A DNA stretch of 64,000 nucleotides from contig JBAXRP010000001.1 of the NCBI GenBank assembly GCA_037131145.1, positions 2,587 through 66,586 of the forward strand. The letters are read 5' to 3'. This DNA comes from Bacteroidota bacterium (lineage in GTDB: Bacteria > Bacteroidota > Bacteroidia > Bacteroidales > FEN-979). How positions within the stretch are numbered: position 1 is the first letter of the stretch; every line of letters begins with the position of its first letter. Below the pieces are notes generated by a model. It did no database searches. It was not told the DNA's origin and saw nothing but the letters and a program-made list of their open reading frames with translations. Of this stretch, positions 21,750 to 43,227 are shown piece after piece. A program made the position numbers and the translations under genes.

Positions 21750-22658
21750 TTAGAAAAGATTCTTATCTTTTTTACTAAGCCTTTTAATCATAATCAACTC
21801 ATAAACCGCATAAATATAATGAGCCCACACACCTAAAAGCATGACTATAAGTGTAATTATCATCCACATGGGAGCAATAGGAGTCCATAATTCCCGCGAA
21901 GGAACTTCCGCCTTGTAATATTGTTTTGGTACGCCCCAGTTTATAGTGTTTTTACCCTCCACAGCTCCATAAACGTCATGCTCTTCAATTCTCGCAATCA
22001 CAACAAGGTTTCCCAGAGTATCTCCAACAATCTCTTTTGGAAACTCAAGTGTTCCTGTTCCCGTTTCATCCAGCGAAATCTCGCCAATTTTAAGAAGGCT
22101 GAAAAGCCTTGGTACATATATAATAACAGTTTCTTTAGAAATCGGAATTACCTCTCTTTTCGCATTTTTCTGAGTTGCTGTAACTTTTAGTGTTTTAACA
22201 GAATCCTCGATGCTGAAAAAAAGCTTAAGACTAGCGGGTTTTGCGGTAAAAGAGGCCTCAGCGTCCTGATATCTATCGGTTCCGGTAAATTTTGCCAAGT
22301 ATGAAATCATTCCGTCTTTGTTTGTCGGTAAACCAGAATGCGAGAAAGTAAATTTGGCAATTCCCTCTTGATTTGTTTTAACTTTCCCAATTACCATGTT
22401 AGATGTTTCCCCAATCACAATAAATTCAATCTGAGCATCTTCGAGGGCAAGTGTAATGTCTCCACGTTTGATAAGCAGCGTAGCTGTGAGGTTCACTGAA
22501 TCCTGCGGACCACATAAATAGCCCAAAGTAAGCCGGGTTTCTATAGTCATATTTACAGAATCCGACTTTTCCTCTGCTTTCAGATAGTTTGGTTGCATCA
22601 TTGTGATGCACAAAACCAAAATGGTCATAAAAGAGTTATAATTTTTCATAATGATCAT
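21750..22658 (-). CDS. periplasmic beta-rich protein with a signal peptide and C-terminal TM anchor (function unknown)
   Basis: 302 aa. N-terminal hydrophobic leader and a C-terminal helix (MWMIITLIVMLLGVWAHYIYAVY). It is the last structural gene of the NrfCD/cytochrome operon. Confidence 0.65.
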   Translation of the reverse strand: MIIMKNYNSFMTILVLCITMMQPNYLKAEEKSDSVNMTIETRLTLGYLCGPQDSVNLTATLLIKRGDITLALEDAQIEFIVIGETSNMVIGKVKTNQEGIAKFTFSHSGLPTNKDGMISYLAKFTGTDRYQDAEASFTAKPASLKLFFSIEDSVKTLKVTATQKNAKREVIPISKETVIIYVPRLFSLLKIGEISLDETGTGTLEFPKEIVGDTLGNLVVIARIEEHDVYGAVEGKNTINWGVPKQYYKAEVPSRELWTPIAPMWMIITLIVMLLGVWAHYIYAVYELIMIKRLSKKDKNLF

Positions 22659-22675
22659 TTAATTTCAGTTTAGTT

Positions 22676-23995
22676 TCAAACCAATATATCATCCTTTTTT
22701 GCTTCTTCCCGCAAACCAGTTACTGGTACAATGGGTACAAACTTTGAGGCAAGCGTAAATAGAAGGCAGAACACGGCAACTCCCGCAGCATTCAAGCTCC
22801 ATTCCACCCAAGTAGCCGTATAATTTAACCACTCAGGCCTTGCATCCTGTATGGGGAGATACGGCGACTCAAGTGTAGGCACCACAATAATATAACGATT
22901 CAACCAAAGAGCTATAACGACAACAATTGAAGTAAGCGTGATATTAGTTATCGTTCTGAATTTTGGTATTCCTACCACGATCAGCGGTAACAGCACACCA
23001 ATATAATTGGAGATAATAAAGGGCCAGTAGAATTCTTTAAAAAGCAACTGAATAAGTAATTCGTCATTTTTTTCCGACCCATACCATTTCGTCAGGTAAT
23101 CGCTAAAAGTAAAATATCCAAAAAATGCGGCAAGCACAAGCATTATTACCCCAACAGCAACGAAGTGTTTTTTTGTAATGTATTCCTCAAGATGATAAAC
23201 CTTTCTAAAAATCCACATTGTGATTATCAGTACTGCGCTTCCCGAATATACAGCCGCAATTACAAAGTAAGGGCCAAAAATAGTACTGTGCCAACCAGGT
23301 TGCAGTGTAACGCTAAAAATCCACGCCAATACAGAATAAACGATAATAGCTATGGAAATTACCATCGCAGCCATAATATCTGTTGCACTGTTGAGACGCT
23401 GCTGTTGTTCCGGGGTGCCGGTATAACCCAATGCAAGGGCTTTATAAAGGCGTTTTCTCCACATAGGAAGTCGTAGGAAGTCATCATCACGAAGTGTTGC
23501 CAGATCGCGTAATAAGGCAAGATAAAGAAAAATGAAACACCCAAAAATATCGGTTGAAATGGCAATTACGTCCCATGTAATTGGTGATTGAATACGTCCA
23601 AAAATTACAAGATAATAAAGTTTATCAAGTCTTCCAATGCAAAGAAGAATAAAGCAAGGGCCGATTAAAAGTGAAATTACAGTGATAAATTCTGCCATTC
23701 TGATAACCGGTTTGCGCCAGGGTGTTTTGAATAAGTGGAGTGTGCCAGAAATCAAAGCGCCAGCGTAACTGATTCCCATAAAAAAAATGAAGTTGACGAT
23801 ATAAACACCCCAAACAACATTATCGCGCATACCTGTTACTTCATGTCCTTTTATAACCTGTTGTAGAAAAGCATAAATTCCAAGACCGATCACGGCAAGC
23901 AGGAATACAATCCAGGCATATCCTACAAAACTAGTTTGCTCAAGTTGCGGCGCAAATTCTCTTAATGGACTTTTTTTTTCGTTTTCCATATTCAC
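22676..23995 (-). CDS. NrfD/PsrC-family polytopic quinone-interacting membrane subunit
   Basis: 439 aa with about 10 TM helices. The N-terminal signature (GHEVTGMRDNVVWGVYIVNFIFFMGISYAG) is typical of NrfD. ATGA overlap with the upstream gene. Confidence 0.8.
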   Translation of the reverse strand: MNMENEKKSPLREFAPQLEQTSFVGYAWIVFLLAVIGLGIYAFLQQVIKGHEVTGMRDNVVWGVYIVNFIFFMGISYAGALISGTLHLFKTPWRKPVIRMAEFITVISLLIGPCFILLCIGRLDKLYYLVIFGRIQSPITWDVIAISTDIFGCFIFLYLALLRDLATLRDDDFLRLPMWRKRLYKALALGYTGTPEQQQRLNSATDIMAAMVISIAIIVYSVLAWIFSVTLQPGWHSTIFGPYFVIAAVYSGSAVLIITMWIFRKVYHLEEYITKKHFVAVGVIMLVLAAFFGYFTFSDYLTKWYGSEKNDELLIQLLFKEFYWPFIISNYIGVLLPLIVVGIPKFRTITNITLTSIVVVIALWLNRYIIVVPTLESPYLPIQDARPEWLNYTATWVEWSLNAAGVAVFCLLFTLASKFVPIVPVTGLREEAKKDDILV

Positions 23996-24954
23996 GGCTT
24001 ATTTTTTTTACTGTATGGTGTATCCTTATATCTGCTTTTTACCTCATCAGTCAAATCCGGAAAACCACGATCAACGGGAAACTGACGATCAACGGGTGGT
24101 AGGTAATAAACACAAGGCCTTGTACCAAGAGTTTCAAGGTATCTGTATCCAGCCCGGTCACGGATTAACTGGCTGAACTGATATGTTTCAGTTCCATTGG
24201 TTACAGTATCTTCATCCACATCCCCAAAATATATTACGCCCATCGGGCAGGCGGAAACGCAATATGGCACTTTGCCAACCCGTATCAGGTCGGGACAAAA
24301 ATCGCATTTAGAAACAGTGCCCTCCTTTCCAGGGCTGCTCGCTTCCGGTGAATAGGGCTCTTTATCTTCATCAAACTCGTGATAATGTTTCCATGCAAAA
24401 ACACGGGTTGAATATGGGCAACCTGTCATGCAGAATTTGCATCCAATGCAACGTTCATTATCGATCAATACAATTCCATCGCTTCGTTTATATGTGGCGC
24501 CAACCGGGCAAACACTCACGCACAAAGGGTTGTCGCAGTGAAAGCAGGGTTTTGGAAACCAGTACGGAGAAGTTTTTTCAGAATCCTGTAACAAGTACAC
24601 CTTCAAAAACTCCTGACTTTTTGGAAGATGATGCCCTTTCTGGCAGGCCTCTACGCATTTCCTGGCATTTTTGCATTTACCAAGATCAATAACCATGACA
24701 AATTTTCGTCCTGGAAGTCCTTTATGGGATTCTTCGCGTGATACCCTCGGCAGTTTAAGAAGGCCTCTATCCACTTCCATAATTTCTCCTTCAGTGGTGA
24801 GGACTTTTACCTTCTTTCCGGATTCGGTTGCATTCGCGTCAACGTATGCTGCAACCAATCCACTACCGGCTGCTATTCCGGCTCCAGCCAGTAGCCCTTT
24901 TTTCAAAAACTGTCTTCTGGTATTTTTTTTATTCTGATTAGTATGCTCTTCCAC
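23992..24954 (-). CDS. Tat-exported 4Fe-4S ferredoxin-type subunit (NrfC/PsrB/DmsB-like)
   Basis: 320 aa with the twin-arginine leader TRRQFLKKGLLAGAG. Four Cys clusters: CKNARKCVEAC, CFHCDNPLCVSVCP, CIGCKFCMTGCP, CDFC...CVSACP. Confidence 0.85.
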   Translation of the reverse strand: MEEHTNQNKKNTRRQFLKKGLLAGAGIAAGSGLVAAYVDANATESGKKVKVLTTEGEIMEVDRGLLKLPRVSREESHKGLPGRKFVMVIDLGKCKNARKCVEACQKGHHLPKSQEFLKVYLLQDSEKTSPYWFPKPCFHCDNPLCVSVCPVGATYKRSDGIVLIDNERCIGCKFCMTGCPYSTRVFAWKHYHEFDEDKEPYSPEASSPGKEGTVSKCDFCPDLIRVGKVPYCVSACPMGVIYFGDVDEDTVTNGTETYQFSQLIRDRAGYRYLETLGTRPCVYYLPPVDRQFPVDRGFPDLTDEVKSRYKDTPYSKKNKP

Positions 24955-24965
24955 GTTTCTGGGTT

Positions 24966-25589
24966 TTAATGTGACTCATGATAACCATTGATCATGCTTT
25001 TAAAATTACTTGTCGGATTTTTTCCGATAGTGCAAAAATATATGTGAACACACATGATTAGACTAATGCCAAAGCCAGAAATAATATGCACAAAATCGGT
25101 CAGATCCAATCCGCTGAAACCGAAAATACTGTTAACGGTGATTTCCGGATACAACAGACCGAATCCGGAAATAATTACAAATGGCACCAGAACATACATC
25201 AGAACAACATAGGTAACTTGTTGTAACGGATTAAATTTTTCTTCCTCATTAACCGGAAAAGGGGCTTGTTCATTTTTGAAAATTCCTATTGTATAAAAAT
25301 ATAGTTGTTTTTTCAGCCTGTCAAATGTATTTTTCAGCGGAATTACATAATGACCGCCGTTTTTCGTGAAAAGATTCCCGAAAAAGAAAACAATGTAACT
25401 TAATGAAAGCAGCATCCCCGCAATATTATGCAAAGTAACAGCCATATTAAATTTAACAATTGTTGAAGGATTTGAAAACTGGATACTTAAACCTGTAATA
25501 ATTAAAATCAAACAAAGTAGTGCATTTGTCAAGTGCCAAATCCTGATCCAAACAGGATACAAATAAAGGCGTTGGGAGCTATGATTCAT
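24966..25589 (-). CDS. membrane di-haem cytochrome b-like subunit (PhsC / Ni-Fe hydrogenase cytochrome b family-like)
   Basis: 207 aa with 4 predicted TM helices and conserved-looking His residues (WIRIWHLTNA, TLHNIAG, FVHIISG, CVHIYF). Confidence 0.6.
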   Translation of the reverse strand: MNHSSQRLYLYPVWIRIWHLTNALLCLILIITGLSIQFSNPSTIVKFNMAVTLHNIAGMLLSLSYIVFFFGNLFTKNGGHYVIPLKNTFDRLKKQLYFYTIGIFKNEQAPFPVNEEEKFNPLQQVTYVVLMYVLVPFVIISGFGLLYPEITVNSIFGFSGLDLTDFVHIISGFGISLIMCVHIYFCTIGKNPTSNFKSMINGYHESH

Positions 25590-26616
25590 GTGGATGATTA
25601 TTTTTAATGCGCAAAACTGCGTGGATAATTATTACGAGAATGGTTAGTCCAAAAATAATCAGACTAATTATATTTAAGGTGTTACTTTGATCTGGTCCAA
25701 TAGTGGTGGAATTTCCCATTAGCAAACCTTTAATAAAACCTTCTTTCTGAATTTGCGAACTCACCTGGTATTTATATAAGGAGGCGTAAAGAATAGAATT
25801 CTGTGAATGGCAGGATTCACACTTTCTGACCGCCAGGCTCTTAGGTACAACATGATGGGCAACAACCAAAGTATCCTCATTTTTGGCATGACATTCAATA
25901 CATCTAACATTTGTAAAATGAGAGGCCTGATTTGGCAGCCATTCATGTTTTTGAAGGATATTTGGATTTACTTTGTCGGTAAGTAACTGATAATTTTTTA
26001 TATCTGCATGACAGTTCAGGCATATAAGGTTATCATAAGTAATAGTTTCTTTAAGGATATTGGTATTACGCGCATTGATTTTGTAGGTATGTGCATCATG
26101 ACACATCCAGCATGTAAAATCTTCGCTATGTTTCTCGGAATGGACACTGGCCATAAAGCCTGTATCAATTTGTTCAAATTGAAATTTTGCGTATTTCTCA
26201 TCTCCACCATGACAGTCAATACAAGTGGCAATTGCTTCCATGCGAAGGTTGCCGTTATGGGGGAAAGTACCATAATCTTCGGAATGACAATCGGTACATT
26301 TAAACTCGCGGTGGTTGGACGAGTAAAAAAGTTCGCGGTTGATTATAACTTCTGAATACATCCGTTTGGAAACATTTCTATTTGCTTCTTTATTTTGATA
26401 TGTATATTTTGACTGACCGTGACATTTGAAGCAGTTTTCGTTTTCGATATAATTTTTAAATTTCGTAAAATCAGTCTTTGCCTGTTGTTCTTTTTCGGTT
26501 TGAGTTGTAATAATAGGCTTTGAATCAGATGTTTTTAAAAGGATAAGGGCAATGGCGCACAAAAGCAACATCATAAGAACGAGCCAGGCCGGGCGTAAAT
26601 TTGCTTTATAAATCAT
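25579..26616 (-). CDS. membrane-anchored heptahaem cytochrome c
   Basis: 345 aa with seven CxxCH motifs (CFKCH, CTDCH, CIDCH, CWMCH, CLNCH, CIECH, CESCH). It has both an N-terminal hydrophobic anchor and a C-terminal TM helix. Confidence 0.85.
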   Translation of the reverse strand: MIYKANLRPAWLVLMMLLLCAIALILLKTSDSKPIITTQTEKEQQAKTDFTKFKNYIENENCFKCHGQSKYTYQNKEANRNVSKRMYSEVIINRELFYSSNHREFKCTDCHSEDYGTFPHNGNLRMEAIATCIDCHGGDEKYAKFQFEQIDTGFMASVHSEKHSEDFTCWMCHDAHTYKINARNTNILKETITYDNLICLNCHADIKNYQLLTDKVNPNILQKHEWLPNQASHFTNVRCIECHAKNEDTLVVAHHVVPKSLAVRKCESCHSQNSILYASLYKYQVSSQIQKEGFIKGLLMGNSTTIGPDQSNTLNIISLIIFGLTILVIIIHAVLRIKNNHPHES

Positions 26617-26649
26617 AGTATCTTAAAAGTAAGTATGAGGGATTGCATT

Positions 26650-26697
26650 GCAAAACAAATGGGTGTAAACAGGAAATTATCTGTTTTACACCCATTT
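26650..26697 (-). terminator. terminator hairpin after the 138-aa cytochrome c gene
   Basis: A 16-17 bp stem with one bulge: aaatgggtgtaaacag (26657-26672) pairs with ctgttttacacccattt (26681-26697). A short U-rich tract follows on the minus strand. Confidence 0.6.
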
Positions 26698-26725
26698 GGT
26701 TAATCATATTAGAACCGGTATGCAG

Positions 26726-27142
26726 TTATTTCTTGAAAGTGCGCATGTAGGCAACCAACGACCAACGATCGTTTGCATCGGGAATTTTCTTTTCGTAGGC
26801 AGGCATTTCATCTCGGCCTTTATCAGTGCGGAAGAAAAGTTCGCCATCAGTGGATCCCTGGAAAGCTGCTGAAGAGAAATCTCCCGGAAAAGTTTTTAGG
26901 GAAGCGCCCTTTGGTCCATCACCCAACCCTTTGCTGCCATGGCACGATTTACAATGTTTTGCCCAAAGTTCCTTCCCGGTAGCTACATCAGCTTTTGCTG
27001 AGGCTTTCAGAGCCTTGTCTTTATCGGGAACAGGCCATGCCTTTGCTTTGGCTTGTTGTGCTGAAGCAGCCTGACCAAACAGAAAAACAACAGCAACGAT
27101 AGCTGTTACGATGATTGTTGCAATTTTTTGAGATGTTTTCAT
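26726..27142 (-). CDS. periplasmic monohaem class I cytochrome c
   Basis: 138 aa with a signal peptide ending ASA-QQ, a single CKSCHG motif and a distal Met (DEMPAY). Confidence 0.85.
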   Translation of the reverse strand: MKTSQKIATIIVTAIVAVVFLFGQAASAQQAKAKAWPVPDKDKALKASAKADVATGKELWAKHCKSCHGSKGLGDGPKGASLKTFPGDFSSAAFQGSTDGELFFRTDKGRDEMPAYEKKIPDANDRWSLVAYMRTFKK

Positions 27143-27186
27143 AATTTTTAATTGTTAGTTATTTGACATTTTGTTTTGGTTTTGGA

Positions 27187-28254
27187 TTAAAAGGTCCATA
27201 ACCGGGTTATATTAAATCCAAGAAGAATAGCGCCATTATATGGATTATTGTTATTATACATAACTGTTTCCTGGGGAAGAAGTCCATTTGCTGCTGTTAA
27301 AAAAATCTGGAAAGCATGGGTACTTGTTGAAATTTCCACGCCAAGACCAAAATTGGGCCACGGGGCAGTATTGACATAAGTAAATACAGGTTGAGAGTAA
27401 CTTAAAATGATTGAAGCCTGCGGACTTATCTTCACTTTTCCTATACCTGAGATATTGATATTATCGTTTTTCATTCCATTTACATGGTTATTGTCTGCTT
27501 CTGCTTGATCAACCAGATTATAATGTACCCATGAAATCCCCAATTGTGCTGAAAATTCTTTACAAAATCTACGTGCAAACATAAATTCAGCAAAATATGA
27601 AAACCTGTAAGAAGCTTTAAAGGTTTGGTCAAAAAGATTTCCCAGATCAGACTGATTAGCTCCATTTAATCCTGTTGCCTGGTTGTATGTAATATAGTTC
27701 AGTCCAGAGTTTGTATCATTTTCAATTATCTGATTTTGAATACTTCTCCGAAACGCTGTATCCTTAACTAAGGAATTGTAATCAAGATCAGATAGTAGTT
27801 TATTATTTCCAAGCGATGACTTGTTACTGGCATTGATCGCTACATTTCCGAAAAAACTAATGGTGACAGGAAAACCATCTTTTCTCTGGCGGGCAATTAC
27901 ATATTTAATGTTGAAATCCTGGAGCATTTTTAGCTTAGTGGTTCCAAACCCCACCTGTAGATTTTTTGTTATTGTAAAATTAAGCCCGAGACGGATGTTT
28001 GAAGCGCCCCAAATACCATACAGGTCAGACCAGTGTTGTTGTATCGTTCCAAAGTCATGCTGGATAACAGCTTCAAGGGTTCTTGCAGGGGGCAGAAAAA
28101 CTGTTCGGTCTGCCATAAAATAACCGCTTTCAAATGGAGCTTTTGCCAATGGTTTCTGGGTTGGTTGTTCAGGGATCGAATCCTGCGCAAAACCCATTCC
28201 AAGACCGCTCATCATGAAGATGAAACCCAGCGCTAATCGTTTCATTTTATCCAT
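27187..28254 (-). CDS. putative outer-membrane beta-barrel protein (DUF5777-like)
   Basis: 355 aa with a signal peptide (GMGFAQD), alternating hydrophobic beta-strand patterns and a C-terminal aromatic beta-signal (ITRLWTF). The family name is from memory and unverified. Confidence 0.55.
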   Translation of the reverse strand: MDKMKRLALGFIFMMSGLGMGFAQDSIPEQPTQKPLAKAPFESGYFMADRTVFLPPARTLEAVIQHDFGTIQQHWSDLYGIWGASNIRLGLNFTITKNLQVGFGTTKLKMLQDFNIKYVIARQRKDGFPVTISFFGNVAINASNKSSLGNNKLLSDLDYNSLVKDTAFRRSIQNQIIENDTNSGLNYITYNQATGLNGANQSDLGNLFDQTFKASYRFSYFAEFMFARRFCKEFSAQLGISWVHYNLVDQAEADNNHVNGMKNDNINISGIGKVKISPQASIILSYSQPVFTYVNTAPWPNFGLGVEISTSTHAFQIFLTAANGLLPQETVMYNNNNPYNGAILLGFNITRLWTF

Positions 28255-28300
28255 AAGATTTATGTATGTATTTCGATTAATATTAGTGTGAAAAAATCAA

Positions 28301-28693
28301 TTAATTATTTACCGCGCCCTCATTGATCCATTTTAAGACTGAATCGGCATTCGCTTTGTTACAATGCTGGCTCATCCCTCCCCCGGGAGCCATTTCGATA
28401 TAAAGGTCGCTGTTTTCCGGAACGGCTATGTCTATCATACCAGCCATATTCTTCAATGCCAGATAGGATTTTCCATCAATCAGAACTGGTGGATTCTGCC
28501 CAATACCATGACAACTAACGCATTTTTCATTAAAAATGGGTTGTATTTCCCCGGCATAGCTAATTTTACCTGGTACCGGAGGAGGAGGAGGAGGTGAAGG
28601 AGGATCAGGTACGATTAAATCCTTCGTACATGCAGAAAAGATAAAAAGCACGAAAAAGATCGTAATCAGTTTTTTCAACTTTTTGCTTTGCAT
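28301..28693 (-). CDS. monohaem c-type cytochrome lipoprotein with a poly-proline linker
   Basis: 130 aa with lipobox FSAC-TKD and linker PDPPSPPPPPPVPG, then IQPIFNEKCVSCHG (a PSCyt-like haem motif). Confidence 0.7.
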   Translation of the reverse strand: MQSKKLKKLITIFFVLFIFSACTKDLIVPDPPSPPPPPPVPGKISYAGEIQPIFNEKCVSCHGIGQNPPVLIDGKSYLALKNMAGMIDIAVPENSDLYIEMAPGGGMSQHCNKANADSVLKWINEGAVNN

Positions 28694-28774
28694 AATTATA
28701 TTTTTAGGTTAAACTATTAATAATTCGATAACAATTGGTTTTCTGAGGTACTTGAAATGTGATTTTTCATGTTT

Positions 28775-28804
28775 GTAAAAAAGCCTCAGGTTCTCTGAAG
28801 CCTT
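28775..28804 (-). terminator. terminator-like hairpin with T-run between the hexahaem gene and the downstream operon
   Basis: On the minus strand, AGGCTTCAG...CTGAGGCTT (two G-U pairs) is followed by TTTTTTAC. Confidence 0.45.
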
Positions 28805-28845
28805 TTTCGCAAATAATTATGACTTTATTACAGATTTGTCAATAT

Positions 28846-28900
28846 CCAGAGAAAACACAAATTCCAAAAATAAAATGTGATTTATTTCTGGAATCTGTGT
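28846..28900 (-). terminator. terminator hairpin after the hexahaem cytochrome gene; also contains the AAATTCCAA repeat core
   Basis: acacaaattccaaaaataaa (28855-28874) pairs with tttatttctggaatctgtgt (28881-28900), 18/20 complementary. A TTTT tract follows on the minus strand. Confidence 0.55.
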
Positions 28901-28915
28901 TGCAATAAAAAACAA

Positions 28916-30220
28916 TTATGGATGTGCAGTTACCCAATCAATCGAATTTTGTAAAAGCTGTAATGCATAAGGAGGATTATGAACGCCTAATGATAATTCA
29001 CTGTTGATATAGGCATAATTGTAAGCAGCTCCTAATTCTCCATATTTCCATACACGGCCTATTCTGTTAGCAAAATCGGTATCTTTTGCGTATTTCAGCA
29101 TATTGCCGTAAATCACCAGACCAGTTGTAGGGCTAACCGTATTGTTACTTGCACTGGTTGCATAAAGTTCTGAACTTGTAACAGTTTGGTACAGTTTTCC
29201 ATTAAAATCGTGGCTTGGCTGAGCGCTGTACGATACAACGCCGGAGGTACTTGTAGTTTTCTTGAAAACTTTTCTCGCAGTAAGGAGTTCGGCTAATTCA
29301 ATGCGTTTTGCATCAATAAGGGCTTGAACAGGTGTTATTTTATCGCCACCGTGGCAAGCAGTACATTCAGCTTTGTTAGCCCATAATGTATGACCACCAG
29401 TTGAGTCGGCTGGATTATATGTATTCATGTGGCAATCAGTACATGCAAAAGCAGAGTGTTTCCAAGTTCTTGTATAGGTTTTGCCTTGATATTCATAACC
29501 ATTAATACCTGAAAATAAATTTGACTGGTTTCCATCATGAACCGAGAAGCTTCTCCCTACACGGTATTGAACAGTATCAAGATCGTTTGTATTTACAAAA
29601 GGAAAGTATGGCAGTTGATCAAATGCCTTATTTATAACCTGAGGTCTGAGAGTAGTGTCGGAATAAACCAGAGAGGTATAGCCACGAATCTGGTGACAAC
29701 TAACACACAGATTATTAATTGCGCCAAAATCCGTCGCAGTAAGATTTTTGTTATAATTTAAATACACAGGGTTAATATTCGTTAAAATTTGAGAAACTGT
29801 GTCGCCTGTAAAATCAAATGAACTATGTTTATGGCACGTTGTGCAGTTAATTCTGTTAGCAGTTGGCATGTCGTTGGCTACAATAAATTTCCCACTACCG
29901 AGATTCTGCATAAATCCTTCACTTGTATGACATCCTGCGCAAAACTTGGTATTTCTTGCGCTTGTTGTACCAAGATAATGTTTTGAGAAATGATACTCAG
30001 CAATTTTAGTATCAAAATTAGCAATTGTGTGGCAAACAAGACAGGAAGCAGTTCCGTCTTTTCCATTTAAGCCATCAACACCGTTCACGCCATTAATTCC
30101 GTTTACTCCGTTTACTCCGGCAGTACCCTGCGGACCTTCTTTGGTGCAGGCAGTAAACATCAACATTGCAGCCGAAACCATCATTCCGGCAACAATAATA
30201 AATTTGTGTAATTTTTTCAT
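28916..30220 (-). CDS. hexahaem cytochrome c lipoprotein with a collagen-like G-X-Y linker
   Basis: Six CxxCH motifs (CLVCH, CAGCH, CTTCH, CVSCH, CTDCH, CTACH). I chose the start at ATG 30220 (MKKLHKFIIVAGMMVSAAMLMFTAC, a lipobox) rather than the track TTG at 30292. Nine G-X-Y triplets follow directly after the lipid-anchor Cys. Confidence 0.85.
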   Translation of the reverse strand: MKKLHKFIIVAGMMVSAAMLMFTACTKEGPQGTAGVNGVNGINGVNGVDGLNGKDGTASCLVCHTIANFDTKIAEYHFSKHYLGTTSARNTKFCAGCHTSEGFMQNLGSGKFIVANDMPTANRINCTTCHKHSSFDFTGDTVSQILTNINPVYLNYNKNLTATDFGAINNLCVSCHQIRGYTSLVYSDTTLRPQVINKAFDQLPYFPFVNTNDLDTVQYRVGRSFSVHDGNQSNLFSGINGYEYQGKTYTRTWKHSAFACTDCHMNTYNPADSTGGHTLWANKAECTACHGGDKITPVQALIDAKRIELAELLTARKVFKKTTSTSGVVSYSAQPSHDFNGKLYQTVTSSELYATSASNNTVSPTTGLVIYGNMLKYAKDTDFANRIGRVWKYGELGAAYNYAYINSELSLGVHNPPYALQLLQNSIDWVTAHP

Positions 30221-30373
30221 TTTTTTACAGATTTTGTTAATAAATACGTTTGAATTGCAGCAGACAACTTGTGCAAAAAGTTTCCGCGACAAAAGTATCT
30301 AAGAAAACAAGAGCCCCTCGTATGGTATTGGTGAGATTTGTTAATATAATAACTGACATTTCTCAACAGCCTG

Positions 30374-30387
30374 TTGATAAATATCAA
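30374..30387. promoter_or_regulatory. perfect FNR/CRP-family box TTGAT-AAAT-ATCAA upstream of the hexahaem cytochrome gene
   Basis: 10/10 match to TTGAT-N4-ATCAA. It lies 154 nt upstream of ATG 30220 and 14 nt downstream of the Crp/Fnr gene stop. A TACTTTTG -7 box sits at 30290-30297 on the minus strand. Confidence 0.7.
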
Positions 30388-30400
30388 TCATTATATATAA

Positions 30401-31096
30401 TCAGCCAGTTTCGCTGATCTGACGAAGTTGTTTTACATTAAGGATTTCCATTTTATTTCCTGCAACAGTTAATATACCCTCCTCCTTAAATTCTTTTAAA
30501 ATTCTTATGGCGCTTTCCTTTGACATGCCCGAAAGATCGGCCAGATCCTGCCGCGAAATGCTTAGTTCAAAAGGATTCTTGCAATAGATTTTTTCGGAAA
30601 GGTAAAAAATGACGTCGGCAATCCTACCGGGCATTTGCTTTTGAGTCAGACTAACGATTTGTTCAAAGTTAAAGATGGATTGCAGAGATACTCGTTTTAA
30701 AAAATCCTCGGCAAAATCGGGGTTTTCACGAATCAGTTTTTTAAAAACGGATGCATCAACAAGGCAGGCGGTACAGTCTTCAACGGCTGATGCTGAATAA
30801 TAGTGACGATTATCAACGTATATACCAGGTCCGAAGATGTAATCCACAGGTTTTACAAGCGCCAGAATAAGATTCTTGCCATAGCCCTCAATATAGATCT
30901 TTGCCAATCCGGATGTTATACAAACAAAGTATGGCGAAGGAGTGCCTTGTTTGAAAATGATTTCTCCACCTTTATAATCAACCTGAAATCGGCTGTTGTT
31001 GATCAGATCAAGCTCCGTCGAACCTAAATTTTTAAAAATCTGAGTTTTGCAGTTGCAATCATTACAATTGGATGCCTGATGATTTTTATTGATCAT
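30401..31096 (-). CDS. Crp/Fnr-family transcriptional regulator with an N-terminal Cys cluster
   Basis: cNMP-binding-like beta-roll followed by a C-terminal HTH (RQDLADLSGMSKESAIRILKEF). I chose the start at ATG 31096 (MINKNHQASNCNDCNC), because the 23 extra residues of the track ORF are implausibly hydrophobic. Confidence 0.85.
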   Translation of the reverse strand: MINKNHQASNCNDCNCKTQIFKNLGSTELDLINNSRFQVDYKGGEIIFKQGTPSPYFVCITSGLAKIYIEGYGKNLILALVKPVDYIFGPGIYVDNRHYYSASAVEDCTACLVDASVFKKLIRENPDFAEDFLKRVSLQSIFNFEQIVSLTQKQMPGRIADVIFYLSEKIYCKNPFELSISRQDLADLSGMSKESAIRILKEFKEEGILTVAGNKMEILNVKQLRQISETG

Positions 31097-31192
31097 TATA
31101 CTGCCTCTTAGACTTTGCTTTTTAGTATCGGACAAAATTAGTAATAAAATGATAAAAAGCAACAATTTTACTATTTTTCATCAACTAAGAGG

Positions 31193-32280: not shown

Positions 32281-32396
32281 GCGGGGTCGAGTTTTGGCAA
32301 AGATACTGAAATGGCGAAATGACGAAATGGTAAAAAAAGTTATTAACAGTGGTTTTACTTTTGGGGTTTTTGGGGATTAAACAGAAAAATGAAATC

Positions 32397-34985
32397 ATGA
32401 AAAAAATATTTTTCTTTCTTTGCCTTGCTCCTATGATGGGGCTGGGGCAGGTTATTGATAATTTTTCGGATGGAAATTTTTCGGTCAATCCCGCGTGGAC
32501 AGGCGATACGGCGCAATTTGAGGTTAGTTTGGGCAATCAACTCCAGTTGCAATCATCCGGCGCCGACACTTCCGTTCTTCTTACTCCCAACAGTAGAACG
32601 CTAAATACCGAATGGAGTTTCTGGATGAAATTATCTTTCAATACCTCAGCAAATAATCACGCAAGGATTTATTTACTGTCCGATTCGGCAAATCTGAAAT
32701 GCGCCAACGCTATCTTTTTGCAGGTTGGAGGCTCCGATGATTCCATCGCGATAATTAAGCAGAATGGCATTGAGCTAACATCATTATACAGATTCAAATC
32801 ATATAAAACCGATAATTCTACAAATATCATGCGGTTCAGAATAATCAGAGACGACCGGGGCGACTGGGAAACAAATATTGATACAACCGGTGGTTTCAAT
32901 TATATTCCTGATGGCGGTTTTTCGGAAAATTCATTGTTTCAATCCAGATGGTTTGGAGTTTACTGCCGTTATACATCAAGCAATGCTACAAAATTATGGT
33001 TTGATGATTTCTATGTAGGAGCGATCATACATGATACTACTCCGCCACAAGTAATCTCACAGGAAATTATCTCTGAAAATATAATCAAAATTGCAATGTC
33101 GGAACCCATTCAGAAGCAGGAGGCGGAAAACCCCGAAAACTTCAGGCTTTTTTCAGGTGGTTATCCCGATTCGGCAAAACTGGAAGTAAACGATCCAACA
33201 GTTATTATTCTTAGTTTTCCCGGAATATTCCCCGAAGGTGTGATTGATACATTATCCGTTCATGGCATAAGCGACCTCAACGGAAACATAATTCTGGATA
33301 CCCTGGTTCCGGTTTTTTATTACAAGCCAAAGGCTTTTGACATTGTAATCGTCGAAATTCTTGCCGACCCTGAGCCGCCGGTTGAACTGCCTGTTGCAGA
33401 ATTTGTAGAATTATACAACCGCACCGTTTATCCGCTGAATCTGAAAGATTGGACATTTCAGTATGGAAGCTATTCAAAAATATTCCCAGATGTGACGATA
33501 CCTCCAAAAAACTATTTGATTATATCTAAAGATTCGGTTTTCCTCCATTTTGGTTTATGCACAACATTGTTCACGTCATCAAGTTCATTGTCAAATGAAG
33601 GTACAACATTGGCGCTAATGGATCAGAAAAAGCATGTAATTCATTCAGTTTCATATAGCCCTGAATGGTTTGGCGGTTCCTTCAAAGGGGATGGAGGATG
33701 GTCGCTCGAAATGTCCGACCCTGAAAATCCTTGCGGTTGTATGGAAAACTGGTGCGCCTCCACCGATTATTCCGGAGGAACTCCAGGAAGAATAAATTCG
33801 AATTTCAGGTCAAATCCAGATATTACCAAACCTCTCATTTCAAGGGCTTTTATCGCCGATTCATCTACGCTGAAAGTGAGTTTTTCGGAAGCCATGGATA
33901 GCCTTACTTTGCTTTCGCGTGAGAAATGGATTGTAAACCCTGAAGAGTTGGGACATCCCGAAAGTGTGGAACCTGAAGCGCCAAGGTTTGACGCGGTAAA
34001 ATTGCATTTTAACAATCCGTTTTCGAGAGGCGTTTTATATAATTTGGCAATCGCCGGCAAAATGAAAGATTGTGTCGGAAACCAGATTGATTCATCGCGG
34101 AATGTGCGGTTTGCAATTCCCGATTCCGTAGCGCTTCACGATATTGTAATCAATGAGTTTTTACCTGATCCCGCCACCGGCGGATCGAGATTTGCGGAAC
34201 TTTATAACCGTTCGGAAAAGATACTTGATCTGCAATCATTGGTCATCGCGGTTAGCGACAGCGCAAGCCTTCAGTCTGATGCAGAACCATTGACTGATAA
34301 TGGCTATTTGTTGTTTCCTGGCGATTATGTGGCGTTTACTTCCATTCCTGCTGATATTATTTCACGCTACCGACCACAGTTTCCAGAAGCGATTATGGGG
34401 ATGGAAAAATTCCCAACTTTGGGAAATGATTCGGGAACCGTTATCATTGCGCGAAAGGACAACTTTACCATTATTGACCGGGTTCGGTATGACGCAGCCA
34501 TGCATTATCCGATATTGGCGACAACCGAAGGCGTTTCACTTGAACGGGCAAGCCCTGAGTTACCATCCGACGACAGGAACAATTGGCATTCGGCGGCAGA
34601 AACCGTAGGATTTGCGACGCCGGGATACCTAAATTCGCACCGGCTTGATTCGCCAAACGATGGGTTGGATATATCGGTAACGCCGGAAGTTTTTTCACCG
34701 GATAACGACGGGTTTGACGATCTGCTGAATATCGCAATTCGTGAACCAAATCCTGGATTTTCAGTTAATATTTACATTTACGATTCGCATGGAAGAGCGA
34801 TAAAACAGTTGGCAAACCAGGTTTATGCAGGCAACGAGGGGGTTTTCTGCTGGGATGGAATGACTGGCGCAAACAGAAAAGCCGGAATCGGCATATATGT
34901 TTTGCTGATCGAATTAACAAGGCAGGATGGAACTGTAAAAAAAGTGAAGAAAACCACGGTACTTGGAGGAAAGTTATCACAATAA
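32397..34985 (+). CDS. secreted protein with two lamin-tail (LTD) domains and a gliding/T9SS-type C-terminal domain
   Basis: Start chosen at ATG 32397 (MKKIFFFLCLAPMMGLGQ, a signal peptide). LTD signatures IVIVEILADPEP..EFVELYNRT and IVINEFLPDPA..FAELYNRS. The C-terminus reads FSPDNDGFDD...GIYVLLIEL. Confidence 0.75.
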   Translation: MKKIFFFLCLAPMMGLGQVIDNFSDGNFSVNPAWTGDTAQFEVSLGNQLQLQSSGADTSVLLTPNSRTLNTEWSFWMKLSFNTSANNHARIYLLSDSANLKCANAIFLQVGGSDDSIAIIKQNGIELTSLYRFKSYKTDNSTNIMRFRIIRDDRGDWETNIDTTGGFNYIPDGGFSENSLFQSRWFGVYCRYTSSNATKLWFDDFYVGAIIHDTTPPQVISQEIISENIIKIAMSEPIQKQEAENPENFRLFSGGYPDSAKLEVNDPTVIILSFPGIFPEGVIDTLSVHGISDLNGNIILDTLVPVFYYKPKAFDIVIVEILADPEPPVELPVAEFVELYNRTVYPLNLKDWTFQYGSYSKIFPDVTIPPKNYLIISKDSVFLHFGLCTTLFTSSSSLSNEGTTLALMDQKKHVIHSVSYSPEWFGGSFKGDGGWSLEMSDPENPCGCMENWCASTDYSGGTPGRINSNFRSNPDITKPLISRAFIADSSTLKVSFSEAMDSLTLLSREKWIVNPEELGHPESVEPEAPRFDAVKLHFNNPFSRGVLYNLAIAGKMKDCVGNQIDSSRNVRFAIPDSVALHDIVINEFLPDPATGGSRFAELYNRSEKILDLQSLVIAVSDSASLQSDAEPLTDNGYLLFPGDYVAFTSIPADIISRYRPQFPEAIMGMEKFPTLGNDSGTVIIARKDNFTIIDRVRYDAAMHYPILATTEGVSLERASPELPSDDRNNWHSAAETVGFATPGYLNSHRLDSPNDGLDISVTPEVFSPDNDGFDDLLNIAIREPNPGFSVNIYIYDSHGRAIKQLANQVYAGNEGVFCWDGMTGANRKAGIGIYVLLIELTRQDGTVKKVKKTTVLGGKLSQ

Positions 34986-40239: not shown

Positions 40240-43227
40240 TTATTGAACAACAACCTTTTCGCTGTAAGACCGGTCGTTAGCAGATAACCGGATAAAATAA
40301 ATACCTTTTGAGAATCCCGACATATCAAGTTTCTTCCTGAATTCACTTCCGGAAACATTCAGTTTTTCTGATAAAAGAACTTTCCCGTTCAGGTCGGTAA
40401 TAGTTAAATCGAGTGATTTTTCCTTACCGGCGATATTGATAGTCAGCTCTTCTTTTACCGGGTTAGGATAGATTTTTACAACCGATTCCAGATCTTTCTG
40501 TCCAATCCCTCCACAGTTATGAACTGATAGCGCTTTGGCAGATTCTGTACCAGAGCCACAATCATTAGTTCCTTTTATAGCGATATTTCCTGATTGCGCA
40601 GTACCGCTTATTGATAAGGTAACCACATTCGTTCCTTGTCCGGCAGTTATGGTAACACCCTGAGGAAGCGTCCATTCGTATCCGGTAGCGCCTGTAATGA
40701 CTGGAATGCTGAAAACATAGTTTCCTTCTCCCTGGCAAACAGTATCCTGACCCGCTATGACGCCAGCCGGTTCCGGGATTGTATTTACGGCAACCTGTTT
40801 TGAAACAGCCGGTCCGGTTCCGCAATCATTTGTAAGGAAAACTGCAACATCTCCAGCAATTATACCCCAGAGAACATTGATTGTTTCGGTTCCCTGACCA
40901 CTTTGGATAGTAGCGTCGGCGGGAACCGACCAATTGAATGTAACGCTTCCACCAGTATAGGATGTTGAGTAAGTACCTTGTGTGTTTGTGCAAAGAATAT
41001 CGGGACCACTTACCGCTGCCGGACTTACAGGAGGTATATTAACCAAAACCGGAAGAATGGAGGCGATTGGATTTGGGCCACAATCATTACTTACAGTAAC
41101 CTGAAGATCGCCGGAGGCGTTTCCCCATTTAACTGTAATTGCCGGAGTATTCTGACCTTGCAGAATCGTAGCCTCGGCAGGAACAATCCATGAGTAACTG
41201 ATTCCGCCAACCACTTCAACGACAGAATACTCAGCGGTATCTCCATTGCAAACGCTCTGCAATCCGGCAATTGGACCTGGCGCTTCCGGGGCGTGGTTTA
41301 CAGTTATCAGAACACTATCTGTAGCGGTATTGGAAGCATTATCGGAAACTGTGATGTGGTACATTGTGGTTGCAGTAGGAGTTGCAAAGGTTGTTGCGTT
41401 GTTTGGGTTTACAATGCCTGTAGTTGGCGTCCATGAAAATGTAAACGGAGGAGTTCCACCAAGAATGTTTACGCTTAATTCTGTCATCAAACCCTGACAG
41501 ATGGTTGTGGGGTTTGCGCTTGCTGTTGCTACGAATACGTTTCCCTGAAGCACCTTGATGGTCGCTGTGCGTTTATGCGCAGGTGTGCCATTGGGGCCGG
41601 TTGCAAAAAATGTAGCCATATAAGTTCCTATTGGAACATCGCCACTGAGCGATAATTTTACCGGTAAGGAAGCTGGATAACTGGTTATTGTGGTTCCGGA
41701 AGGAAATTCAAATGTAATAGAACCAGCGGTAGGCACAGGAGAAATTGATCCGGATAAAATAACAGAATCGGTATATAGTTTTACGGCAGGAATAGATACC
41801 TGGAATGTTGTATTATCAAATGGAGCATAAAGCGTATCCGATGCTTTATCAATAGCCATGGCATAGTCGGGAAAATATCCGGTCATACTCTGGAAGGTTC
41901 CTGCGCGAAAATCTGTCCAACCCAGCATGGAAACTTTTTTATTTGAAACCACCCCATTGTAGTCGCCTTCATAAGCCGGGGTTCCACCGCCGCCGCAGGT
42001 AGTACAGTTAATTTTCATCTTTTTATTGGAGATACGCTGATTTGCCACCCACGTCGCTCCACCGTCTGTTGAATAGGAAGCATAGATAAAAGCGCTGTCG
42101 TTTGTAGGCGTATCACGGGTATCCATCCACATGGCATACAATTTTCCGGTCTCCTTATCACACCAGATAGCGGGATGCCATTGCTGAAAGTTCTGGGTAT
42201 TTGGATCGTCGTTAATGCGAACGGATGAGCTCCAGGTAGCGCCGCCGTCGGATGAACTGCGACACCAAACATCGGACTTGGCGTTGGCGCCTGGAGGATC
42301 GTTGGAGGCGTAAACACAATAAAGTTTTCCGCGGTTGGCGCCATAACTGTTATCGGCGGCAATCATAGGATAAGGACGGGTACGCATGTTTGACACCGAA
42401 TTTCTGCCACCCACCTGCGATCCCACTGTATTTGACCATTGCTGAGAAGACTTTTGTACAAAAGTGGACCCGCCATTTGTTGAAAGATAAAATGTATAAA
42501 CTGAACTGAATGAACTGCCACTATTGGTTACCACATAAACAGAGCCTCCCTGAATATTACTTTGAGGACCAACGCACACCATCATACCGGGAAGCGACTG
42601 TGTAGTTGGCGCAAAAGTTGAAGTAAATGTTGCTCCGTTATCAATGCTTCTGGCAAAATTTCCAACGCCGTTGTTGGTCATTGTTGTATAAACATAATTG
42701 GCATAAGGACCTGAGGTTTGGTCGCAGGCAAGCCAGTTTTTATCATTTCCGGCAATTGCAGTAACCGACGTACCCCATGTTGCGCCGTTTGTAGTAGATT
42801 TTATTACTTTACAACCGGATATGCTTCCATACATGTTTTCATAAAAAAGATTTCCTATACTATCATAACCTACAACCGGGTCTCCCGCCATTGTAGCTCC
42901 GAAATTCGGATTGTTCTTCGCCCAGTCAATGCCATTTTCGGTATGATGAGTTTCATTGGTGTTGTATGCGGTAAAAAACCATGTAGGATGATTGGGATCT
43001 GTTGCCATGTTGTTTTCTGCAAAATCAACCCCAAGACTGTAATTATCCCAGTTATCAATAGTAACCACAGCCGAATTTGCAGTTGTTCCATCGCTTGTTG
43101 CCGAGCCTCTCTCGCGAAGGTACTGAGGAATTTGATCAAGATTGGGATTATCCCGCTTGAACTGTGCAAAACTCTGGTTTGCAAACAATAGGACAAAGAG
43201 CAAACCCACCAAAGTAAAGATTTTCAT
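40240..43227 (-). CDS. secreted BNR/Asp-box (sialidase-like beta-propeller) protein with repeated Ig/PKD-like modules and a T9SS C-terminal sorting domain
   Basis: 995 aa with a signal peptide and Asp-box repeats (STTNGATWG, SIDNGATF, STNGGSTF, SSDGGATWS, STDGGATWV). Four Cys-containing Ig-like repeats follow. The C-terminus reads KIYPNPVKEELTI...GIYFIRL. Confidence 0.8.
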   Translation of the reverse strand: MKIFTLVGLLFVLLFANQSFAQFKRDNPNLDQIPQYLRERGSATSDGTTANSAVVTIDNWDNYSLGVDFAENNMATDPNHPTWFFTAYNTNETHHTENGIDWAKNNPNFGATMAGDPVVGYDSIGNLFYENMYGSISGCKVIKSTTNGATWGTSVTAIAGNDKNWLACDQTSGPYANYVYTTMTNNGVGNFARSIDNGATFTSTFAPTTQSLPGMMVCVGPQSNIQGGSVYVVTNSGSSFSSVYTFYLSTNGGSTFVQKSSQQWSNTVGSQVGGRNSVSNMRTRPYPMIAADNSYGANRGKLYCVYASNDPPGANAKSDVWCRSSSDGGATWSSSVRINDDPNTQNFQQWHPAIWCDKETGKLYAMWMDTRDTPTNDSAFIYASYSTDGGATWVANQRISNKKMKINCTTCGGGGTPAYEGDYNGVVSNKKVSMLGWTDFRAGTFQSMTGYFPDYAMAIDKASDTLYAPFDNTTFQVSIPAVKLYTDSVILSGSISPVPTAGSITFEFPSGTTITSYPASLPVKLSLSGDVPIGTYMATFFATGPNGTPAHKRTATIKVLQGNVFVATASANPTTICQGLMTELSVNILGGTPPFTFSWTPTTGIVNPNNATTFATPTATTMYHITVSDNASNTATDSVLITVNHAPEAPGPIAGLQSVCNGDTAEYSVVEVVGGISYSWIVPAEATILQGQNTPAITVKWGNASGDLQVTVSNDCGPNPIASILPVLVNIPPVSPAAVSGPDILCTNTQGTYSTSYTGGSVTFNWSVPADATIQSGQGTETINVLWGIIAGDVAVFLTNDCGTGPAVSKQVAVNTIPEPAGVIAGQDTVCQGEGNYVFSIPVITGATGYEWTLPQGVTITAGQGTNVVTLSISGTAQSGNIAIKGTNDCGSGTESAKALSVHNCGGIGQKDLESVVKIYPNPVKEELTINIAGKEKSLDLTITDLNGKVLLSEKLNVSGSEFRKKLDMSGFSKGIYFIRLSANDRSYSEKVVVQ

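Follow-up and report, generated by a model that had tools for sequence, protein, structure and literature searches.

The window analysed here is a stretch of 64,000 nucleotides from a Bacteroidota bacterium (order Bacteroidales; GenBank assembly GCA_037131145.1, contig JBAXRP010000001.1, positions 2,587 to 66,586). Its minus strand carries, in direct succession, an open reading frame (ORF) for a monohaem c-type cytochrome lipoprotein of 130 residues (cyt130, 28301..28693) and, in a different frame, one for a DUF5777 outer-membrane β-barrel of 355 residues (27187..28254). The TAA of cyt130 ends at 28301 and the ATG of the barrel lies at 28254, which leaves a spacer of 46 nt (28255..28300, minus strand), exactly as given in an earlier note on this DNA. 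The NCBI model of an identical barrel protein starts 3 codons later, at Met4, giving a protein of 352 residues and a spacer of 55 nt. The earlier note had seen in them a possible split Cyc2-like cytochrome-porin, by analogy with the fused cytochrome-porin Cyc2. Our analysis makes the pair a good candidate for an undescribed form of cell-surface electron transfer; its localisation, haem binding and substrate are features that we infer computationally.

Cyt130 has the layout described before: a lipobox cysteine, a linker and one CxxCH motif. The signal peptide closes with the lipobox FSAC, whose lipidated cysteine is Cys22. A Pro-rich linker, PDPPSPPPPPPVPG (residues 29–42; 28568..28609, minus strand), joins the lipid anchor to the haem domain, and the sole CxxCH, CVSCH (residues 58–62; 28508..28522, minus strand), sits in the sequence EIQPIFNEK-CVSCH. 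An invariant P69-V-L71 follows 6 residues past His62, the methionine of a conserved G-x-M107 is the candidate distal ligand, and the protein ends in WINEGAVNN. The first haem Cys lies 29 to 70 residues (median 34) past the lipobox Cys in 72 orthologues, and the tether has at least ~15 residues in all orthologues compared. The two haem cysteines, the histidine, the tryptophan of the last helix and the terminal asparagine are invariant throughout the family. Two further short regions, of a kind that would be expected to vary, are conserved family-wide: the start of the tether, C-[ET]-[YK]-[DA]-x-I-x-P (C-T-K-D-x-I-V-P in cyt130; 28607-28630, minus strand), with Ile at +6 in 54/72, and the near-invariant C-terminus ...W[IV]xxGAxNN-stop (28301-28327, minus strand). 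They might mediate contact with the barrel or serve as a sorting signal.

The haem motif itself varies in length among orthologues (cited from L016-L080). Cx2CH occurs in 53, Cx4CH in 19 (for example CLGSLCH and CATAGCH), Cx3CH in 1 and Cx1CH in 6 (CTCH and CGCH, for example), with Cys, Cys and His kept throughout. A natural haem c site of the form CxCH is not known to us. The conserved Met has given way to another residue in a few orthologues (L048, L050, L054), which carry a His close by and may use bis-His ligation.

With 33 close relatives and 2494 at profile level, cyt130 is by sequence a real gene and not a chance ORF. Its family comprises unannotated lipoproteins of ~125 residues, the 120 best relatives spanning 107–168. 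Pfam gave only sub-threshold matches around the haem motif, to Cytochrome_CBB3 (19.6 bits against a cut-off of 27), Cytochrom_C and PccH, and NCBIfam nothing more than a sub-threshold match to the 'LIC11213 family lipoprotein' of Leptospira. The weak PccH match recurs in 18 of 24 members of the family. The haem domain had been called PSCyt-like, which holds only indirectly: neither cyt130 nor its 23 close homologues matched PF07635 (PSCyt1) in Pfam at E<=1, whereas profile-level family members of 150–168 residues do, as do multi-domain operon partners (1.7e-17 in locus L147). When solved sequences were searched, the family-wide profile (A4) recovered PccH (6.7e-6), the haem domain of the hydrazine synthase alpha subunit (9.9e-6) and FoxE (2.8e-5); a narrower profile (A2) recovered PccH at no better than 1.3e-3. 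A signature, F-x-x-x-[IV]-x-P-[IL]-F...CxxCH...W-I-x-x-G-A, is common to the cytochrome family and both domains of FoxE. The kinship of the cyt130 family to PSCyt1, PccH and FoxE is remote, homology and not orthology. An AlphaFold model of cyt130 (predicted local distance difference test score, pLDDT, 78.6) has helices at residues 46–62, with CxxCH at the end, 76–81, 96–101 and 113–124, a layout of the class-I type in which an N-terminal helix runs into CxxCH and a further helix lies at the C terminus. Foldseek searches with this model returned cytochrome c domains alone, PccH among them, although all matches were weak (E>=0.13).

The second protein begins with a type-I signal peptide (residues 1–23, ...GFA/QDS), lacks CxxCH and ends in the β-signal ...FNITRLWTF; residues 34–58 near its N terminus are conserved but modelled at low confidence. 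It matches Pfam DUF5777 (PF19089) over model positions 1–247 of 247 with E=3.6e-61 (207 bits against a cut-off of 23.1). The NCBI name for identical and near-identical proteins is 'DUF5777 family beta-barrel protein', and Pfam describes the domain as a 'membrane bound beta barrel domain'. At E <= 0.01 the Pfam scan reported DUF5777 alone for this protein and thus no further barrel family, not even MtrB/PioB; the protein matched no NCBIfam model, and a profile search of PDB sequences was empty even at E<=10. Database relatives number 1045, down to E=1e-235, and the barrel, too, is on this showing a real gene and not a chance ORF. An alignment of 24 sequences (62–83% identity) contains 66 invariant columns, a degree of conservation that is unusually high for an outer-membrane protein. 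The AlphaFold model built on it has 12 strands and a mean pLDDT of 72. Foldseek matched the model exclusively to outer-membrane barrels in the PDB (FapF, KdgM/NanC, OmpG, FadL and COG4313); target coverage was best for 12-strand barrels, first KdgM (template modelling, TM, score 0.71 on the target), then NanC and FapF. The 355-residue protein is therefore, by signal peptide, family, β-signal, model and structural neighbours, the outer-membrane barrel it had been taken for, and the model puts it at ~12 strands.

Between strands 5 and 6 lies a helical insertion of ~75 residues (residues ~142–217; 27604..27831, minus strand), modelled as a block with pLDDT 85–92. It is limited to the clade of the window; most family members have ~300 residues and lack it. 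Assuming standard outer-membrane-protein topology, the insertion would be an extracellular loop domain. Strand faces were assigned by a simple and approximate scheme, derived without model coordinates. By this scheme, invariant polar or charged residues on lumen-like faces are Q65, N86, R88, D113, K117, E223, R229, Q237, N265, K275, S281, E307 and N348. Three invariant histidines, His66, His244 and His313, come out at the ends of strands and on their lipid-like side. A bis-His haem b inside the lumen was considered and is kept as a remote possibility at most, given the position of these family-wide histidines and the missing CxxCH.

By standard geometry, a 12-strand barrel has a C-alpha radius of ~11 Å and a lumen of ~10–12 Å, and a haem domain measures ~28 Å. 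The lumen is thus too narrow to hold the folded 85-residue haem domain, and the suggestion that this domain plugs into the barrel does not stand. A lumen of the modelled size would admit ions, small molecules, or an extended chain or helix, such as the tether. In one Cyclobacteriaceae locus (L068:5989-7751), two DUF5777 barrels lie in tandem behind one cytochrome gene. Among family members, P0198 (615 residues) consists of two fused DUF5777 barrels, and P0292 is a LysM-DUF5777 fusion. The tandem and the fused barrels hint that these proteins may act as dimers or oligomers.

The association of the two genes was examined from both sides. A scan of one genome per GTDB species yielded at least 571 barrel relatives, of which the best 80 loci were examined. 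A cyt130 homologue lies directly upstream of the barrel on the same strand in 79 of them; the one exception is truncated by the contig end. The spacer has a median of ~23 nt by longest ORF (72 orthologous loci). A distant DUF5777 subfamily (the 'ETGGHVFQ' type, 26–44% identity within it) was sampled from metagenome contigs, and 1–2 same-strand CxnCH genes lie upstream of the barrel in 50 of the 53 loci with sufficient upstream sequence. In the reverse direction, 7 cytochrome relatives were looked up on long contigs, and PF19089 was found in the same operon in 7/7. Co-occurrence of the two genes across genomes, which had been put forward as a check on the pairing, is thus borne out. The two proteins also co-vary. 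Pairwise distances at 56 loci were compared in a mirror-tree analysis, with a partial r that removes the mean signal of three other cluster proteins. Cyt130 and barrel distances gave r=0.80 and partial r=0.56; for cyt130 against other cluster proteins, partial r ranged from -0.36 to 0.10. The positive control, a 7-haem protein against its cytochrome b (described below), gave r=0.95 and partial r 0.80. The co-variation is consistent with a specific partnership, though the method cannot prove contact. Taken as sequence evidence, these results support reading cyt130 and the barrel as genuine partners in function.

The closest relatives come from metagenome-assembled Bacteroidota genomes, L001 (Lac Pavin) being 96% identical. 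The best 80 loci belong to Bacteroidales, Prolixibacteraceae, Draconibacterium, Mariniphaga, Lentimicrobiaceae, Cyclobacteriaceae, Ohtaekwangia, Chryseolinea and Puia, and the source habitats of genomes with the pair are ferruginous or humic anoxic lakes, peat and groundwater. Two loci labelled 'Alphaproteobacteria bacterium' (L044) and 'Verrucomicrobiota bacterium' (L069) carry the complete Bacteroidota-type cluster; mis-binning or mislabelling, not transfer, probably explains these labels.

Cyc2, the iron oxidase of Acidithiobacillus, Mariprofundus and others, is defined by a signal peptide and a single CXXCH, a porin of 16 strands in the same polypeptide, the unique motif AxPxFAR[Q/K][T/Y] 5 residues upstream of CXXCH and a downstream PxL, the last of which occurs in many cytochromes and is not Cyc2-specific (PMC8406198). 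Neither the 150 best barrel representatives nor the 120 best cytochrome relatives include a cytochrome-DUF5777 fusion, and in L001-L160 the cytochrome and barrel queries never matched one and the same ORF; long barrel representatives are LysM-barrel proteins, tandem barrels or proteins with unrelated N-terminal extensions. A search for P.FAR[QK][TY] gave 0 matches, whether in the six-frame translation of the window or in the complete ORF set of L001-L160. Because fusion, strand number (~12, not 16) and signature motif all fail, the pair lies outside the Cyc2 family, and the idea of a split Cyc2 has to be given up. What the two systems share is one c-type haem with an outer-membrane barrel, a Sec signal, a PxL after CxxCH and iron-rich habitats; the Cyc2 model also has its haem at the periplasmic mouth of the pore, as in the arrangement proposed below. 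They differ in that Cyc2 is a single polypeptide and the pair is the product of two genes, with cyt130 a lipoprotein on a Pro-rich tether. PxL lies 4 residues past the His in Cyc2 and 6 in cyt130, and where Cyc2 has an OprO/OprP-like porin, the pair has the unrelated DUF5777 barrel and a haem domain of FoxE/PccH/PSCyt1-like type.

Other systems offer partial parallels. FoxE of Rhodobacter ferrooxidans SW2 (PDB 5MAB) 'extracts electrons from Fe(II)' (PMC10654088). It shares with cyt130 remote homology of the haem domain and the sequence signature, and His/Met-type coordination is expected in both. FoxE, however, is a soluble periplasmic protein of two domains and two haems, is proteobacterial and encoded with FoxY and FoxZ, and is no lipoprotein and has no dedicated barrel; the window pair has neither this dihaem architecture nor foxYZ partners. 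PccH (PDB 4RLR) resides in the periplasm of Geobacter sulfurreducens, which needs this monohaem cytochrome to take up electrons from electrodes (PMC13591261). Of ~130 residues and with one haem, PccH is the best match among solved sequences, and it takes part in electron exchange with extracellular partners; it differs in being soluble and without a paired barrel, and the alignment spans its N-terminal two thirds only. In MtrAB/MtoAB/PioAB and the Geobacter Pcc/Ext systems, a barrel gene likewise adjoins c-type cytochrome genes, and the clusters also have quinol-oxidising inner-membrane cytochromes and outer multihaem lipoproteins. These conduits have 20–26 or more strands around a multihaem wire, whereas the barrel of the window is small and its partner monohaem, and for this reason the pair falls outside the Mtr/Pcc type of conduit. 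PSCyt1 (PF07635, 'Planctomycete cytochrome C') shares the sequence signature, and operon partners and some members of the cytochrome family match it; classical PSCyt1 domains occur in the large PSCyt1-PSCyt2/PSD1 proteins of Planctomycetota and Verrucomicrobiota.

The pair sits within a minus-strand cluster (21750-31165) that is conserved as one unit; the counts given below refer to the best 80 loci. At its upstream end, a Crp/Fnr-family regulator with an N-terminal Cys cluster (30401..31165, minus strand) has a homologue in 58/80 loci. It is followed by a multihaem lipoprotein with 6 CxxCH and a collagen-like G-x-y stalk (28916..30292, minus strand; homologue in 56/80), whose similarity to MtrC/OmcA domains is below threshold. 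This lipoprotein probably starts at Met25 (nt 30220) and not at the listed TTG, because a normal lipoprotein signal peptide begins there. Right behind the lipobox are about nine G-x-y triplets, GPQGTAGVNGVNGINGVNGVDGLNGKDG (30053-30139, minus strand), which suggest a trimeric stalk linking the lipid anchor and the haem domain. Just 3' of the multihaem gene, an inverted repeat forms a terminator-like 20-bp hairpin followed by a T-rich run (28855..28900, minus strand), and a second short hairpin with a T-run was seen by eye at ~28775-28804 (minus strand). A sigma-70-like site, TTGACA-18-AATTAT, lies between the multihaem and cytochrome genes (~28775-28842, minus strand), in a scan whose scope does not include Bacteroidota promoters. 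Given the hairpins and the promoter-like site, cyt130 and the barrel probably begin their own transcript.

Downstream of the barrel lie a class-I cytochrome c of 138 residues with a type-I signal peptide (26726..27142; Cytochrome_CBB3 4.8e-12, Cytochrom_C 1.9e-9; 68/80 loci), a candidate periplasmic partner of the pair, and a membrane-anchored 7-haem cytochrome of 345 residues (25579..26616; 67/80 loci), both on the minus strand. Next on the same strand is a dihaem-type cytochrome b of the PhsC/HydC family (207 residues, 24966..25589; PF01292 1.4e-25), which matches the thiosulfate reductase cytochrome b model at 3.8e-55, just under the cut-off. In a Lentimicrobiaceae locus (L056:6916-8496), a 7-haem cytochrome and a PhsC-type cytochrome b form one ORF; we take this fusion, and the neighbouring genes of the window, to represent the arrangement seen in Geobacter CbcL. 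The fusion and the r=0.95 noted above support the view that the 7-haem protein and cytochrome b of the window (24966-26616) form one quinone-linked complex. The cluster continues, still on the minus strand, with a Fe-S protein exported by the twin-arginine translocation (Tat) route, which has four clusters and is DsrO/PsrB/NrfC-like (320 residues, 23992..24954; 51/80 loci), and an integral membrane quinone-interacting subunit of the NrfD/PsrC type (439 residues, 22676..23995; PF03916 3.4e-31; 48/80 loci). These two are the usual NrfCD/PsrBC-type quinone module; the window cluster has no catalytic molybdopterin subunit. The last gene (21750..22658, minus strand; 46/80 loci) encodes a conserved protein of no known family, of 302 residues, to which neither Pfam nor NCBIfam gave a match. 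Made up of a signal peptide, a β-rich body and a C-terminal transmembrane helix, it trails the Fe-S/NrfD pair, minimal Cytophagales clusters included, and may be an undescribed subunit of that quinone module.

Elsewhere in the window are three large cargo proteins of the type IX secretion system (T9SS), at 32349-34985 (LTD and CHU_C domains), 40240-43227 (PKD_6 and Por_Secre_tail) and 58412-62101 (cohesin, Big_2, LamG and Por_Secre_tail), and these confirm that the window is part of a T9SS-bearing Bacteroidota chromosome. The cluster is on no obvious mobile element, because its flanks are housekeeping genes (asd, gidA, and GlnS- and GltX-type tRNA synthetases).

The surroundings of the pair vary. 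Cytophagales loci retain only the cytochrome, the barrel, the Fe-S and NrfD proteins, the 302-residue protein and the cytochrome c, and L050 has an extra NapC/NirT-type 6-haem protein. In a groundwater Bacteroidetes (L058:491-9584), the pair lies within an operon for a Tat-signal molybdopterin oxidoreductase of 944 residues, together with a Fe-S subunit bearing a T9SS Por_Secre_tail, a NarJ-like chaperone, a Crp regulator and an EB_dh haem-b protein; the cytochrome has an additional Cys-rich N-terminal domain. The gene content suggests a respiratory molybdoenzyme exported to the cell surface. In the distant subfamily (L081-L167), a module very common in Bacteroidota combines DUF5777 with a multi-domain PSCyt1 cytochrome lipoprotein (236–442 residues), a cytochrome lipoprotein of ~125 residues, a tRNA_anti-like OB-fold protein (PF12869) and YceI (PF04264); L147:1818-5898, L163:4692-8763 and L164:4310-7338 are examples. 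An extra Rieske protein of 138 residues is present in L163, and L147 has an extra PKD-cytochrome lipoprotein with the full K-D-E surface-export signal. YceI and the OB-fold protein were in the same operon in 6/7 of the look-ups from the cytochrome side, and also in L147 and L108. YceI is absent from the window cluster and, by gene order, from all 80 close loci.

On which face of the outer membrane the lipoproteins reside bears on any mechanism. The surface-export signal of Bacteroidota is K-(D/E)2 or Q-A-(D/E)2 just past the lipidated Cys (PMC5080379). Cyt130, with C-T-K-D-L, and the multihaem lipoprotein, with C-T-K-E-G, do not carry the full signal, and two acidic residues at +2 to +6 occur in 11/72 cyt130 orthologues. 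In the reference organism, KD alone gave 30% and KE alone 16% surface-positive cells (PMC5080379).

We propose that the pair would form a two-part outer-membrane redox module, in which a narrow ~12-strand DUF5777 barrel works with a FoxE/PccH/PSCyt1-type monohaem cytochrome, held to its lipid anchor in the outer membrane by ~20 residues of Pro-rich tether. The folded holo-cytochrome would remain periplasmic, docked at the barrel mouth. Some small, soluble redox species would enter via the channel and trade electrons with the haem, complexes of Fe2+ or Fe3+ being the most plausible candidates, and the haem would also trade electrons with the soluble cytochrome c encoded alongside. That cytochrome would in turn link to two inner-membrane quinone-pool modules, the CbcL-like 7-haem/cytochrome b proteins and the NrfCD-like Fe-S/NrfD proteins. 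Electrons could leave the cell, with Fe(III) or humics as acceptors, or enter it from Fe(II). The data show the gene pairing, the co-evolution, the fold and approximate size of the barrel, the family ties of the cytochrome and the content of the cluster. The physical complex, the periplasmic position of the haem and the nature of the substrate are what we infer here, and we put the probability of the whole proposal, a barrel channel with a tethered periplasmic haem acting on small soluble redox species, at roughly 0.4. With moderate confidence, and by analogy, such a module would follow a Cyc2-like logic (a channel plus one haem) with unrelated parts.

Physical arguments favour this arrangement. 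Haem is attached in the periplasm and the pore is narrow, so a folded holo-cytochrome cannot cross it. The weak KD/KE export signal favours the periplasmic face. Electron tunnelling has a limit of ~14 Å and the membrane is ~35–40 Å thick, and one haem therefore cannot bridge it. Together, the narrow lumen, the periplasmic haem attachment, the weak signal and the single haem make a channel with a tethered periplasmic haem the physically simplest model. An iron or humic-type substrate is indicated by the FoxE/PccH kinship, the Fnr-type regulator and the ferruginous or humic anoxic habitats. A redox role at the outer membrane is reasonable in the light of the cytochrome-rich, quinone-linked cluster, even though a split Cyc2 is not.

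Several observations weigh against the proposed module. The conserved tether motif and the exact C-terminus hint at a more intimate, possibly threaded, interaction, and a KD/KE signal still gave 16–30% surface display in the test organism (PMC5080379), which leaves some room for surface exposure. The charges on the lumen face are mixed (R88, K117, R229 and K275 versus D113, E223 and E307), and the modelled lumen is not obviously cation-selective. Confidence in the barrel model is only moderate (pLDDT 72), and its conserved N-terminal residues 24–58, which are poorly modelled, could plug the channel. The direction of electron flow and the substrate are guesses. Finally, the much commoner YceI-type module has no respiratory neighbours, which means that the ancestral function may not be metal respiration.

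The pair might instead be a true trans-membrane conduit, in which the tether or C-terminus threads the barrel, or the cytochrome caps it from outside in the manner of SusD on SusC, and the haem is placed to relay electrons between the cytochrome c of the periplasm and one on the cell surface, for example the multihaem lipoprotein encoded alongside. We regard this as somewhat unlikely. There are precedents for threading: RcsF passes through OmpA/C/F, and a passenger linker occupies the 12-strand barrel of autotransporters. An extended chain or helix would fit a 12-strand lumen, as the Foldseek match to the polypeptide transporter FapF recalls, a tether of at least ~15 residues suffices to cross the membrane, and a conserved motif after the Cys and a near-invariant C-terminus are unusual for a passive tether. 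Surface partners are also conceivable, as the adjoining gene encodes a multihaem lipoprotein with weak MtrC/OmcA similarity, the PKD-cytochrome lipoprotein of L147 bears the full K-D-E export signal, and the T9SS-tagged molybdoenzyme of L058 would need electrons outside the cell. Nevertheless, a single haem is too short for the membrane, and the barrel offers no CxxCH or evident cofactor site, its family-wide His residues lying on the lipid-like face at strand ends. The folded holo-cytochrome cannot reach the surface via a 12-strand pore, and the window proteins themselves bear only the weak KD/KE signal.

It is unlikely that the barrel stands outside the electron path altogether, as an assembly, anchoring or export factor (Slam-like) for cytochrome lipoproteins or as their membrane dock. 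The genes of Slam translocons adjoin those of their lipoprotein substrates, and the strict adjacency seen here is of that kind; the widespread module has several cytochrome lipoproteins, single- and multi-domain, per barrel, and the structural neighbours of the barrel include a polypeptide transporter. Passage through the pore is nonetheless implausible for a protein whose haem is attached and whose domain is folded in the periplasm. Moreover, conservation of the barrel far exceeds that of typical docks or porins, many of its 66 invariant columns being polar and lumen-facing, and Bacteroidota send most surface lipoproteins out by a general signal-dependent route (PMC5080379).

A lipophilic redox molecule, a quinone or isoprenoid, seems to us a quite improbable substrate. 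The barrel would then be a FadL-like hydrophobic channel and YceI a periplasmic lipid carrier, with the cytochromes oxidising or reducing the carrier-bound molecule, and the window cluster would be a derived version that has lost YceI. The presence of YceI and the OB-fold protein in 6/7 look-up operons, in L147 and in L108, one operon with a small Rieske protein, fits such a scheme, and FadL chains were among the top Foldseek E-values. Their TM-scores are low (0.25–0.33), however, FadL having 14 strands and a hatch domain; YceI is missing, by gene order, from the 80 close loci as from the window cluster. Last, the very improbable view that the adjacency is mechanistically meaningless, an ordinary small porin being co-transcribed with an ordinary periplasmic cytochrome, can point to the fact that neither protein is experimentally characterised and that 'DUF5777' is absent from the literature searched, but it is hard to hold against a pairing that persists over two deeply divergent subfamilies (~30–40% identity) and many neighbourhoods, and against the specific co-variation of cyt130 and the barrel.

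Devices that combine a cytochrome with a barrel are already known, and the window pair differs from them in both components and in architecture. The literature searched contained no paper on DUF5777 and no description of the cytochrome-barrel module; LIC11213 appeared only in a vaccine-screen mention, and work on YceI with cytochromes in Bacteroidetes and on the multihaem cytochromes of Prolixibacteraceae did not describe the module. Tentatively, and at odds that we would put below even, DUF5777 and the PSCyt1/FoxE-like lipoproteins may constitute a phylum-wide outer-membrane redox machine, so far unrecognised, that in anaerobes is wired to CbcL/ImcH-like quinol oxidases and multihaem lipoproteins, giving the phylum an extracellular electron exchange route of its own, independent of Cyc2, Mtr and Pcc. 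Its carriers would be anaerobic Bacteroidales, Prolixibacteraceae and Lentimicrobiaceae of iron- and humic-rich waters, and its role would be to oxidise Fe(II), or else to reduce Fe(III), humics or electrodes.

Anoxic lakes, peat and groundwater rich in iron and humics harbour abundant Bacteroidota, and electron-transfer genes described as 'putative, non-homologous' have turned up repeatedly in metagenomic surveys of these bacteria, with no defined system (PMC6344600). If the proposal is true, it would supply a testable function for DUF5777 and for ~2500 unannotated cytochrome clusters, and surveys of iron and humic cycling would gain a marker in the gene pair. It would also add a third, minimal outer-membrane redox architecture, a narrow barrel with a tethered monohaem lipoprotein, beside Cyc2 and Mtr/Pcc. 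The aerobic Bacteroidota version of the module, with YceI, the OB-fold protein and sometimes a Rieske protein, suggests that the family has a broader, unexplored redox function in the cell envelope.

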